Positions 14,125-16,774 of a DNA stretch of 55,835 nucleotides are shown one piece after another. The notes under the pieces were generated by a model, which made no database searches, was not told the origin of the DNA, and worked only from the letters and a program-made list of their open reading frames with translations. The first letter of the stretch is position 1. Each line of letters begins with the position of its first letter. Both the position numbers and the translations under genes were made by a program. Source of the stretch: Promethearchaeia archaeon (lineage in GTDB: Archaea; Asgardarchaeota; Lokiarchaeia; Sigyniarchaeales; SOKP01). The DNA lies in NCBI GenBank assembly GCA_046483985.1, contig JAWOCD010000034.1:1-55835 (forward strand). The letters are read 5' to 3'.

Positions 14125-15741
14125 TTAAGATTCTGCTTTTGTTTTCATGACGCGATTTAATCCTTGAATGAGAGCCAAAACCGAACTCATGACAACATCC
14201 TCATGAGTAGCACTTGTTCGAACCACATAATTGGTTTCCAAGTCCATGATTTCAATGGTCACGTTTCCCAATGCTTCTGTGCCTCCAGTGACGGCATCGA
14301 TATTATATTCTAAGAGTTTAATCTTACTCATCGGCTCGAAACATTTTACAATCGCTTTAACAGACGCATCCACCGGACCAACTCCTACAGAGGAAGCCAC
14401 TTTTGCCACAAACTCTCCATTATCCCTGATCTTTAACCGTACTGTAGATGTAGGTGTGATAGAACCAGTTAGAACTGTCAATTCATCGAGAATGACATAT
14501 CGTTCTTCTTCTGGTAATTCTCCCATCACATCCTTTACAATAGCTAAGAAATCTTCTTCCATCACTTCGTGCCCTTTATCTCCGAATCGTTTCACGCTTT
14601 CAATAATTTTTTGGAATTGTTGCTCGGTGGTTTCTATTCCGAGATCATCTAATTTCGCCTTTAATGCATGACCGCCAGTATGTTTCCCTAATTTGATTGA
14701 CTGCTTAATGATTTCTTCCACATTATCGCTCCGCTTGATACCAATCAACTCAGGAGTAATTGGTTCGTATGCGCGGGCGTTCTGGATCATAGCATGGGCA
14801 TGAATTCCGGATTCGTGTGCAAACGCATTTTGTCCGATAAGTGGCTGTAACCGTCCGATTTTAATCTTCCCTCCGCAGAAACTTTCGACGATTTTTGCGG
14901 TAGGAAATATCCGTCGCGTATTTATATTCATTGGTAATTGATATAATGCGTATAATGACATTGCCGTCTCCTCGAAGGAAGCATTTCCAGCTCGTTCTCC
15001 AATCCCCATAATGGTGGTTTGGGCTTCGGCAGCGCCGTTTTCAAAGCCGGCTATTGTATTTGCAACGGCTAATCCAAAATCGTTGTGGCAATGTACGGCA
15101 ATTCGTACATCTTTTGGTAAAGCCTCGTAGATTCTTCCCACCGTGTACCCAAATGCTTTCGGTACGATAGTTCCCACTGTGTCTGGAATATTCACGCGTG
15201 TTGCTCCATGTTCTACAGCAGTTTGGTTTGCTTCGATGAGAAAATCTAAATCCGATCGGGTTGCATCTTCGGCTGAAAAGAGAACGGTTTCATAATGATC
15301 TTTTGCATATGAGACCATTTCGGATATTTGAACCAATACTTCTTGACGGGTCATTTTTAATTTGGATTTCATATGTAAATCCGAGGTGGCGATAAATACA
15401 TGGATACTGTCCATATCGGCTTCAATGACTTTATCAATGTCTAACTTTTTCATACGGGCTAACCCCATAACTTCTAAGTCTAAACCTAATTTAGAAATAT
15501 CCTTGCATGCCTTAAAATCTCCTTCAGATACCACCGGGAATCCAGCTTCAATAATATCGATTCCCAATTGGTCCAATGCTCTCGCAATGGCAAGTTTCTC
15601 TTCATCGGTGAAGCTAATCCCCGGTGTTTGCTCGCCATCACGCAACGTGGTGTCAAAAAAGTAGGCTCTTTCGGGAAGATTGATACTCTCCCTCATGTGT
15701 TCCATCATTTTTGACACGTTTATTTCGCTTTTTTCCGACAT
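14125..15741 (-). CDS. leuA: 2-isopropylmalate synthase (LeuA/CimA family)
   Basis: DTTLRDGEQ, HCHND, GERAGN, HESGIH, C-terminal regulatory domain (GVGPVDA); the Leu-only upstream leader favours LeuA over CimA. Confidence 0.85.
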   Translation of the reverse strand: MSEKSEINVSKMMEHMRESINLPERAYFFDTTLRDGEQTPGISFTDEEKLAIARALDQLGIDIIEAGFPVVSEGDFKACKDISKLGLDLEVMGLARMKKLDIDKVIEADMDSIHVFIATSDLHMKSKLKMTRQEVLVQISEMVSYAKDHYETVLFSAEDATRSDLDFLIEANQTAVEHGATRVNIPDTVGTIVPKAFGYTVGRIYEALPKDVRIAVHCHNDFGLAVANTIAGFENGAAEAQTTIMGIGERAGNASFEETAMSLYALYQLPMNINTRRIFPTAKIVESFCGGKIKIGRLQPLIGQNAFAHESGIHAHAMIQNARAYEPITPELIGIKRSDNVEEIIKQSIKLGKHTGGHALKAKLDDLGIETTEQQFQKIIESVKRFGDKGHEVMEEDFLAIVKDVMGELPEEERYVILDELTVLTGSITPTSTVRLKIRDNGEFVAKVASSVGVGPVDASVKAIVKCFEPMSKIKLLEYNIDAVTGGTEALGNVTIEIMDLETNYVVRTSATHEDVVMSSVLALIQGLNRVMKTKAES

Positions 15742-15781
15742 TTTCTTTTAACCTATTTTAGATTGTTTAATTTTTGAAAAT

Positions 15782-15837
15782 CGCTTCCCTTGTTCGTCGG
15801 GGATGAGAATGCTCCACACCGAAAAACAAAAGAAGCG
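15782..15837 (-). promoter_or_regulatory. 56-nt hairpin in the leuA 5' leader
   Basis: CGCUUCUUUUGUUUUUCGG...CCGACGAACAAGGGAAGCG; about 19 pairs including G-U; starts 3 nt after the leader stop codon. Confidence 0.75.
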
Positions 15838-15840
15838 TGT

Positions 15841-15936
15841 TTATAATAATAAAAGTAGAGATAATAAGCTTAATAATAACAATCCTAATGGTAACTCTTG
15901 CTCAAGACCGAGCGAATATGAGTTTTTCTCGTTCAT
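15841..15936 (-). CDS. Leucine-rich leader peptide, MNEKNSYSLGLEQELPLGLLLLSLLSLLLLL (31 aa)
   Basis: ATG with AAGGA 7 nt upstream; 15/31 Leu, 11 of the last 13 codons; same strand as leuA and 99 nt upstream of it. Confidence 0.8.
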   Translation of the reverse strand: MNEKNSYSLGLEQELPLGLLLLSLLSLLLLL

Positions 15937-15974
15937 TTCAGTTTCCTTTAGAATTGCAATTATTGTTAATTATT

Positions 15975-15982
15975 AATATAAA
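15975..15982 (-). promoter_or_regulatory. Candidate TATA box of the leader-leuA transcript
   Basis: TTTATATT about 40 nt upstream of the leader ATG; weak evidence in an AT-rich background. Confidence 0.35.
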
Positions 15983-16177
15983 TCGATGGAAAGTTAAAAA
16001 TTTTATTCATCAAATTTTGGAAAAAATTTCCATGCTCTATTGAGGGATTAATTCATAGTAAGTAAGGAAATAAAGCAGCAAAACTCATAATGAATAATTA
16101 ATAATGCGTTAGTTTTTAATCTTAGAAGTTATGATATAAAATATGCAATGACATAACTACATTATGGGTGGTTAAAT

Positions 16178-16774
16178 ATGCCAAACAAAAAAAAGTTAGA
16201 AAATTTTATAGATGGTATCTGGATAGTAGAAATTGCATCTGGAATCTGTATTTTTGAAGAAATTTATGAAGAAATGACAAAACAAGGGATCTCAACAGAT
16301 TTGATTTTAAATTTTCTTTCTGCATTAGTTAATTTTGCTGATGAAGTGTTTGTGGGAGAAATAAAACATATAAAGCTGTCAAACCATAAGATCTTTTTTG
16401 ATTTTTTAGAGCACATCATGTTAATAACATCTCTATCTGACGAGATAGACATTGAGGAAAAGAAAGTAAATTTATTGATAAAGAGAATCGGTAAACAATT
16501 TAATTTAAAGTATGGGTACTTATATGACCAAGAATTCTGGTATATAGATGTTGAGAAGTTTGATTCATTTTCTGCAGAATTAAGAGAGATTTTAAATAAA
16601 GAACCAAAATCAATTAAAATGATACATAATTTGGATTTTACGGAAAAAATAAAGAAATTAAATGAATCAATTGATAAGGAAACTATTAGATTTATGAAAA
16701 GAAAACAAAAACTTGAAAAAGCTTATGAAAAAACTATAAAAAAATTAGAATCTAAAAAGGAAAAGCAGATTTAA
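16178..16774 (+). CDS. Longin-like domain protein with C-terminal coiled coil
   Basis: IWIV..SGICIFE...DLILNFLSALVNFADEV..GEIKHIKL. Confidence 0.65.
   Translation: MPNKKKLENFIDGIWIVEIASGICIFEEIYEEMTKQGISTDLILNFLSALVNFADEVFVGEIKHIKLSNHKIFFDFLEHIMLITSLSDEIDIEEKKVNLLIKRIGKQFNLKYGYLYDQEFWYIDVEKFDSFSAELREILNKEPKSIKMIHNLDFTEKIKKLNESIDKETIRFMKRKQKLEKAYEKTIKKLESKKEKQI

Follow-up and report, generated by a model that had tools for sequence, protein, structure and literature searches.

Our comparative analysis of a 55,835-nucleotide (nt) stretch of DNA from a Promethearchaeia archaeon (contig JAWOCD010000034.1 of assembly GCA_046483985.1, positions 1 to 55,835, hereafter the window) points to a short open reading frame (ORF) in front of the leucine biosynthesis gene leuA as a probable cis-acting leucine gauge, that is, a leucine-sensing upstream ORF (uORF) whose stalled ribosome would prevent the formation of a hairpin adjacent to the stop codon. 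We assign this reading, which is drawn from sequence comparison, a probability of about 0.72. The elements of the locus are as follows.

15841-15936, minus strand: leader ORF from ATG to TAA, 31 codons and a stop, 15 leucine (Leu) codons (peptide P0001)
15844-15882, minus strand: Leu-dense tail with 11 Leu in the last 13 codons, reaching up to the stop and ending TTA TTA TTA; the proposed sensing codons
15944-15948, minus strand: Shine-Dalgarno (SD)-like AAGGA of the leader, 8 nt 5' of its ATG
15782-15837, minus strand: imperfect 56-nt hairpin starting 3 nt past the leader stop
15777-15780, minus strand: run of four U one base past the hairpin (A-UUUU-C)
15751-15755, minus strand: SD sequence of leuA, TAGGT, 10-14 nt upstream of its ATG at a conserved position
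14125-15741, minus strand: leuA, long-form 2-isopropylmalate synthase of 538 amino acids (aa); NF002085, 576 bits against a cut-off of 517

The preliminary description of this DNA had reported an ORF of 31 codons with 15 Leu, no isoleucine (Ile) or valine (Val) and an AAGGA of its own, ending 99 nt before leuA, and all of these counts were confirmed on the sequence. Leucine is encoded in the leader by TTA (ten times), CTT (twice), TTG, CTC and CTA (once each), Ile and Val codons both number zero, and the distance from the leader TAA to the leuA ATG is 99 nt. The standing of this composition within the genome was assessed by listing, over the six frames of the 4.06-Mb assembly (35% GC), each ORF with a length of 8-70 codons and scoring it by the count of the commonest residue among its last 12 codons. 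The leader, with 10 Leu, was the sole ORF with more than 8 Leu in this tail (three others reached 8), and the sole Leu-rich tail located in intergenic DNA at most 500 nt upstream of a long ORF. A chance origin of the leader is not credible, as the most extreme Leu tail among the short ORFs of the genome precedes the first committed enzyme of leucine synthesis. ARAGORN detected 19 transfer RNAs (tRNAs) in this metagenome-assembled genome, and the tRNA-Leu inventory was uninformative.

Orthologs of leuA were drawn from 40 related genomes and a species-level genome collection, which yielded 58 distinct leuA upstream sequences (this archaeon and about 57 relatives); unless another sample is named, the comparative results below refer to this set. 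A Leu-rich ORF was found in essentially all leuA orthologs of Promethearchaeota with at least 65% identity and enough upstream DNA, and these make up the 58 distinct sequences. The search for Leu-rich uORFs before Asgard leuA orthologs, which the preliminary description had proposed as a check, thus recovered them at the same distance across Promethearchaeota, including the cultured Candidatus Lokiarchaeum ossiferum Loki-B35, whose LeuA is 67% identical and whose leuA is likewise preceded by a Leu-rich leader (P0002; L081:1291-1401, about CP104013.1:3541713-3541823). The closest LeuA proteins belong to metagenome-assembled genomes labelled Promethearchaeota. The leader ends 82-132 nt before leuA, mostly 87-101 nt. 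No Leu leader was found at one further locus (L019) or in GC-rich sister families of the same order (L022-L025), nor in the outgroups Bathyarchaeota, Hadarchaeota, Hydrothermarchaeota, Methanocella and Nitrososphaeria.

The N-terminal half of the leader and its length drift (25-39 codons in most). Its ATG is retained, together with a GGAA or GGGA located at about -8 to -14. Across the last 14 codons of the 58 leaders Leu accounts for 67% of the residues, Ile for 1.2%, Val for 1.1%, phenylalanine (Phe) for 2.0% and methionine for 0.5%, compared with 9.7% Leu, 8.9% Ile, 5.3% Val and 5.0% Phe in the long ORFs of the genome. All six Leu codons are used in the leader tails (TTA 372, TTG 75, CTT 50, CTC 22, CTA 19 and CTG 5), a typical tail consisting of a CTN pair followed by a near-invariant terminal TTA TTA TTA. 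The earlier argument that a mix of synonymous Leu codons speaks against a plain TTA microsatellite was borne out on this larger scale, with six codons in use and Leu kept while the peptide drifts. Leu is preserved despite substitutions that neither a (TTA)n repeat nor a TATA-like tract would survive. Of 116 alternative sense frames (two per leader), only 6 stay open over its length, and the antisense frame is open in 22 of 58. Two antisense ORFs of the window, 15803-15976 and 15837-16043 on the plus strand, were rejected as genes, the antisense frame being broken in 36 of 58 relatives. Readthrough or frameshifting into leuA was rejected as well: at 99 nt the window leader shares the reading frame of leuA, but relatives do not hold their spacing to a fixed multiple of three.

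Two side observations concern the distribution of the leader. At one locus (L016 / L076, G039:C95) an N run and a duplicated leuA 5' end lie between the Leu leader and leuA, placing the leader about 350-370 nt upstream, which is most likely a scaffolding artefact. At three leuA loci of Altiarchaeota (L101, L108 and L100) ORFs of 30-43 codons occur about 94-164 nt upstream of leuA; two of them (L101 and L108) contain a run of 5-6 Leu followed by R-x-R-A-stop and share downstream sequence, and the third (L100) has a Leu/Arg-rich tail. Going by their sequence, these ORFs may represent an independent Leu leader in another archaeal phylum.

The Leu codons are followed almost immediately by a hairpin. 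In the window it is pyrimidine-rich on its 5' side (CGCUUCU...) and purine-rich on its 3' side (...GGGAAGCG), and has a minimum free energy (MFE) of -27 kcal/mol (z = -5.2), a stability equalled by none of 200 dinucleotide shuffles. Minimum-energy folds place a hairpin of 40-61 nt in 58 of 58 sequences, with the first paired base 0-5 nt after the stop, and z-scores ranged from -2.0 to -5.65 in all 12 diverse relatives tested. The interior holds one inner stem or two, depending on the sequence. In every case the closing helix joins a pyrimidine-rich 5' strand to a purine-rich 3' strand; C/U make up 80% of the first 12 nt of the hairpin and A/G 73% of the 3' strand. From the end of the hairpin to the leuA ATG there are 34-43 nt in 55 of the 58 sequences.

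The pairing of the two arms was examined with fixed windows, 3-20 and 38-75 nt from the start of the stop codon, by comparing each arm with its own and with permuted partners. Own arms paired at -13.99 kcal/mol versus -9.31 +/- 0.33 for permuted ones (0 of 5000 permutations), and the difference held among 32 representatives (-13.80 versus -9.03 +/- 0.42 kcal/mol). In an alignment of 20 sequences seven closing pairs were paired in 90.4% of cases versus 78.0 +/- 2.1 in shuffles, six of the seven change on both sides in a compensatory manner, and the covariation score of the closing helix was 0.535 against 0.304 for shuffles (none of 500 reached it) and 0.19-0.33 for slid registers. This alignment was flush-trimmed, its ends being set by the MFE fold of each sequence itself, which should be borne in mind when reading these scores; in four of its 20 rows the register is shifted by one column, a shift that acts against the structure. 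RNAalifold on plain MAFFT alignments returned nothing, or the inner AU-rich stem only, because there the 3' arm is out of register. On this comparative evidence, the arms of the hairpin co-evolve.

The arrangement suggests the following sequence of events. Transcription would start at a promoter upstream of the leader, and the leader would be translated from its own weak SD sequence. With charged tRNA-Leu in ample supply, ribosomes would clear the Leu tail, terminate and leave, and the 56-nt hairpin would fold. When charging of tRNA-Leu is low, ribosomes would slow down and queue on the Leu codons and, because these codons reach up to the stop, the leading ribosome would cover the 5' base of the hairpin and hold it open. 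Expression of leuA is expected to be lower with the hairpin folded and higher with it open. The steric part of this scheme is well supported: since the Leu codons reach the stop and no more than 0-5 nt separate it from the helix, a ribosome with its A site on the last one or two codons would have to open the helix base. In a partition-function model the 3' arm had a baseline unpaired probability of 0.10; a ribosome placed on the stop or the last codon increased it to 0.43-0.47, and one with its A site three codons earlier only to 0.17. Co-transcription of the leader with leuA, translation and ribosome stalling on the leader, and the direction of the effect on leuA are inferred.

Leaders of the same kind, enriched in other amino acids, were found elsewhere in the genome by a check before other amino-acid genes of the kind that the preliminary description had proposed: an Ile-rich one precedes cimA, and tryptophan (Trp)-rich ones precede trpB2 and trpD.

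G000:C71:7053-7118 = L110:2254-2319, minus strand: Ile-rich leader, 21 codons with 9 Ile (7 in the last 12)
L110:528-2126, minus strand: cimA, citramalate synthase (TIGR00977, 676 bits), 127 nt past the Ile leader
G000:C50:42673-42726 = L111:1874-1927, minus strand: Trp-rich leader with 5 Trp, 171 nt before a TrpB2-type gene
G000:C69:35913-35984 = L112:414-485, plus strand: Trp-rich leader with 4 Trp, 426 nt before trpD

The enzyme encoded by cimA forms the entry to isoleucine synthesis. Among the 16 cimA orthologs of relatives examined, 10 had an Ile-rich leader upstream, namely 8 of the 9 from the same family and 2 from a sister family; these leaders end 106-133 nt before the gene. The gene behind the 5-Trp leader codes for a TrpB2-type tryptophan synthase beta subunit (NF009057, 643 bits) and the one behind the 4-Trp leader is trpD (TIGR01245, 410 bits). 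Both Trp leaders carry W-x-W-x runs and are the sole intergenic ORF tails of the genome with at least 4 Trp; the Ile and Trp leaders top their residue classes in the genome-wide tail scan. We lean towards the view that Asgard archaea of the Lokiarchaeia type possess a small regulon of ribosome-read leaders (Leu for leuA, Ile for cimA, Trp for trpB2 and trpD) built on a single hairpin abutting the stop, an archaeal expression platform unlike the terminator/antiterminator pair of bacteria. This would be the first archaeal tRNA-charging sensor of its kind, and it probably evolved independently of the bacterial ones. The Leu leaders of Altiarchaeota suggest that the leader principle is wider in Archaea.

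Further structure and further mini-ORFs were noted in the course of this survey. The stop of the Ile leader is followed by a conserved AAGAAAUUUUAAAC-like sequence, for which a GUUUAAAAUUU-like stretch 40-70 nt further on seems to be the pairing partner. In the 5-Trp leader a GGCGU/ACGCC hairpin, followed by U5, takes in part of the last codons and stop. A 42-codon ORF (G000:C45:21276-21404, plus strand) contains 10 cysteines (Cys) in three CKCGGGC-type repeats and lies 416 nt before a 501-aa ORF. A threonine-run mini-ORF (G000:C24:64024-64062) was not counted as a cognate leader, the genes behind it having no family match.

For the proposed gauge, the transcript would have to begin far enough upstream to include the leader. 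Two AT-rich elements lie in front of it.

15993-16004, minus strand: distal element AAAATTTTTAAC, resembling a promoter and situated about 57-68 nt 5' of the leader ATG
15963-15982, minus strand: second AT-rich element TTTATATTAATAATTAACAA (TTTATAATTAACAA in relatives)

An A/T-TTTTTAA motif after a purine run at about -60 from the leader ATG recurs in most of the 58 loci, which makes the distal element AAAATTTTTAAC a candidate transcription factor B recognition element (BRE) and TATA box. The TTTATAATTAACAA element, at about -38 (about -45 to -27) from the leader ATG, is kept in many relatives; candidate roles for it are an alternative TATA box, a regulator site and an initiator region. Of the two AT-rich motifs, which recur at equivalent positions in L031-L095, one probably serves as the TATA box. 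Since the two arms of the hairpin covary, the 5' arm must be transcribed, and leuA uses an SD sequence, so that its mRNA needs a 5' untranslated region (UTR) of at least 20 nt. A promoter serving an SD-bearing leuA UTR alone would have to sit in the 3' half of the hairpin, and the stretch 46-60 nt upstream of the leuA ATG is GC-rich in the window and not TATA-like. An internal leuA promoter within the hairpin was rejected: stems of the UAUAAG/CUUAUA type occur in a subset of sequences only, and the window and many others have GC-containing stems.

The use of an SD sequence by leuA is in line with its orthologs, in which AGGU(G/U) alternates with AGGAG at a position coinciding with the genome-wide SD peak. 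Over 2080 gene starts SD motifs peak at -17 to -9, and the SD-type motifs AGGT, GGAG, GAGG and GGTG were observed to be 5- to 10-fold enriched there. A minority of genes in this Loki-type genome use SD sequences, which a recent review has called rare in Lokiarchaea (PMC12993045).

The step by which the hairpin would act on leuA is less clearly indicated than the sensing itself. Hairpin-dependent premature termination or 3'-end processing, e.g., by aCPSF1/FttA, is our tentative first choice, at somewhat less than even odds; control of leuA translation or reinitiation is a possible but rather unlikely output, and an effect on mRNA stability or something else stands at about the same level. Several results weigh against the proposed gauge or against a simple output for it. 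No conserved U-tract was found after the hairpin: the T-run there is at most 3 in 50 of 58 sequences, at least 4 in 8 and at least 5 in 2. Gene ends of this genome carry T5 within 60 nt in 56% of 864 gene 3' flanks, against 30% for an A5 control, the first T5 lying mostly at most 20 nt from the stop and with no extra hairpin potential before the oligo-T; such gene ends fit archaeal U-tract termination. The leuA SD does not lie within the hairpin, and in the model the unpaired probability of the region from SD to AUG changes merely from 0.47 in the free state to 0.51-0.54 when a ribosome occupies the end of the leader. With the 5' arm masked no recurrent alternative fold that could serve as an antiterminator was found, the inner stem remaining in place. 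Because a stalled ribosome and one that sits on the stop codon mask the hairpin to the same extent, the model needs a kinetic difference between terminating and stalled ribosomes. Finally, Leu-codon mutations in a comparable leuA leader of Streptomyces are reported to have departed from the behaviour expected under classical attenuation (PMC1262725).

Several specific devices were tried against these data and discarded. A bacterial-type terminator as a conserved feature was rejected in view of the missing conserved U-tract, the gene ends without hairpins and the lack of enrichment of bacterial-type terminator hairpins in the window (14 found versus 12.3 expected). A second hairpin beside the SD, competing with the first, was rejected because no recurrent alternative fold appeared with the 5' arm masked. 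Nor is there support for a U-tract terminator within the 5' arm, where T-runs of at least 4 occur in 48% and of at least 5 in 9% of sequences, weaker than at ordinary gene ends. Within this genome, a hairpin and after it U4-5 or a U/C-rich stretch come behind each of the leaders of leuA, cimA and trpB2, which hints at termination but does not hold across the leuA relatives. Of the two parts of the preliminary interpretation, therefore, the leucine-sensing uORF gained comparative support, and the attenuator in the strict sense of regulated termination did not, as no conserved U-tract, antiterminator or SD-sequestering fold accompanies it.

Leader-peptide attenuation, textbook knowledge for bacteria, depends on ribosomes that translate the RNA during its synthesis. 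The enterobacterial attenuators (leuL, Rfam Leu_leader RF00512; trpL, hisL, ilvL and pheL) likewise consist of a short ORF before the first biosynthetic gene, with a run of cognate codons near the end of the ORF and RNA structure beside the stop, and likewise form a group of several leaders, each enriched in its own amino acid, before different pathways. The present element differs from them in its archaeal host, in having one conserved hairpin instead of a 1:2 / 2:3 / 3:4 set, in the lack of a conserved GC-stem and U-tract terminator in a host that terminates at oligo-T without hairpins, and in that the Leu codons reach the stop and the hairpin starts 0-5 nt later. Rfam cmscan of positions 15600-16200 (E up to 10) returned sub-threshold matches only, with none to Leu_leader RF00512 at gathering score. 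The best match was to rli60, the branched-chain leader RNA of Listeria ilv-leu (15898-15981, minus strand; 26.8 bits versus a gathering score of 60, E 0.22), and is probably compositional.

The actinobacterial LEU element shares with the present locus a Leu-run uORF before a monocistronic leuA, conserved structure in between and no obvious terminator (Seliverstov et al. 2005, PMC1262725). It is defined, however, by a base stem between the Leu-codon run and the leuA SD and by a pseudoknot (PMC1262725), and such a stem is not supported here: the pairing of Leu run and leuA SD gave -8.76 kcal/mol for own and -9.25 kcal/mol for cross-species partners, own partners being better in 25 of 58 sequences, and the energy in the window (-10.2) was matched by 31% of 2080 other ribosome-binding site (RBS) regions. 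A weak pairing of the Leu run with the SD is conceivable, both regions being AU-rich. The LEU-element model of Leu run and SD, as well as pairing of the hairpin 5' arm with the SD, were discarded for want of an own-specific signal.

In translational attenuation (ermC/cat; the mycobacterial poly-Cys leaderless uORFs, bioRxiv 10.1101/834739) a ribosome stalled on the uORF remodels a downstream hairpin without a terminator, as proposed here, but the hairpin of the ermC type sequesters the downstream RBS, whereas ours ends 34-43 nt before the ATG and shifts the modelled SD accessibility by about 0.05. Systems of the tnaC/Rho-dependent and mgtL type also rely on a ribosome at the leader end that masks the RNA just after the stop. 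Their output passes through a termination factor and not through an intrinsic terminator; in archaea this part would fall to aCPSF1/FttA together with U-tracts (PMC8716108). tnaC senses free Trp via its nascent peptide and not tRNA charging, and the stop-adjacent pyrimidine tract of the present element is paired in the hairpin. The hairpin start, with 80% pyrimidines, is compatible with a factor entry or cleavage site; however, T-runs of at least 5 are found in only 9% of the 5' arms. By analogy, the element would resemble the enterobacterial attenuators in function, and in architecture it seems nearest to the terminator-less cases (LEU element, mycobacterial Cys leaders, tnaC-like systems). 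It should not be filed in any of the compared families, because it lacks an Rfam match, a conserved terminator, an antiterminator, SD sequestration and a Leu-run/SD stem.

Among the other explanations of the locus, the one to be taken most seriously, improbable as we judge it, regards the hairpin-bearing 5' UTR as the true regulator, bound by a protein or a ligand, and the Leu ORF as an accessory instead of the sensor; a structure-as-regulator view has been argued for the actinobacterial LEU element (PMC1262725). The hairpin is the best-conserved structural feature, its spacing to the ATG is near constant at 34-43 nt, the Leu-codon mutants of the LEU element defied the prediction of attenuation (PMC1262725), and the conserved AT-rich motifs upstream could be operator sites. 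Conservation is limited to the closing helix, however, and no conserved unpaired nucleotides are present that could form a ligand or protein pocket; a structural regulator also leaves unexplained the tail of 67% Leu with near-exclusion of Ile, Val and Phe, and the Ile and Trp leaders before cimA and the trp genes. The same composition bears on the possibility that the uORF is translated and acts non-specifically, coupling the ribosome to RNA polymerase or tuning basal leuA translation, with no reading of leucine. uORFs can indeed act generically, and a conserved terminator, antiterminator or SD-sequestering fold was not found; yet a generic role offers no reason for the most Leu-rich ORF tail of the genome, nor for the enrichment of the sister leaders in the cognate amino acid of their pathway, and we regard it as quite improbable.

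Still less probable is a reading in which the ORF specifies a small, hydrophobic and functional membrane peptide and is related to leuA by location only. Polar serine, asparagine, aspartate and glycine residues break up the Leu runs, and a transmembrane segment would use Ile, Val, Phe and alanine, each of which is held here to 1-2%, even though the Leu-rich C-terminus is hydrophobic and small membrane proteins are common and under-annotated. In addition, the N-terminus and the length drift, and it is the linkage to leuA and the stop-adjacent hairpin that are conserved instead. The slimmest chance is given to the idea that the tract is untranslated, either (TTA)n-like low-complexity DNA that arose by chance in an AT-rich genome or a TATA-like tract of a leuA promoter. 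In its favour, the genome has 35% GC with TTA as the commonest Leu codon, TTATTATTATAA resembles a TATA box, and the plus-strand reading is (TAA)n-like. Against this, the tail is unique in the genome and kept in 58 loci together with an ATG and an SD-like motif, the codons CTT, CTC, CTA, CTG and TTG keep Leu and destroy the likeness to a TATA box, and the other frames are closed. A transcription start site about 25 nt past TTATTATTATAA would moreover exclude the 5' arm of the covarying helix.

As to its surroundings, leuA is seemingly monocistronic, being followed by a gap of 308 nt and then by an NMO/FabK-like reductase gene. On the other side, a divergent ORF of 198 aa (16178-16774, plus strand) adjoins the promoter region of the leader and had no Pfam or NCBIfam match.

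A full-text literature search across 8.4 million papers and preprints found no description of leader-peptide amino-acid sensing in archaea, and attenuation is not mentioned in a 2026 review of Asgard biology. If the proposed leucine gauge is true, a ribosome-read sensor would work in a cell whose polymerase, ribosome and terminators, the last being oligo-T with aCPSF1/FttA, are eukaryotic or archaeal in type. The tightness of the coupling between transcription, translation and termination in Asgard archaea becomes testable, as does the conversion of a stalled ribosome into an output by a platform of one hairpin. The element occurs in the cultured Lokiarchaeum ossiferum, and experiments are therefore possible. 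For annotators, the finding would provide a rule for locating unannotated regulatory mini-ORFs in archaeal genomes.

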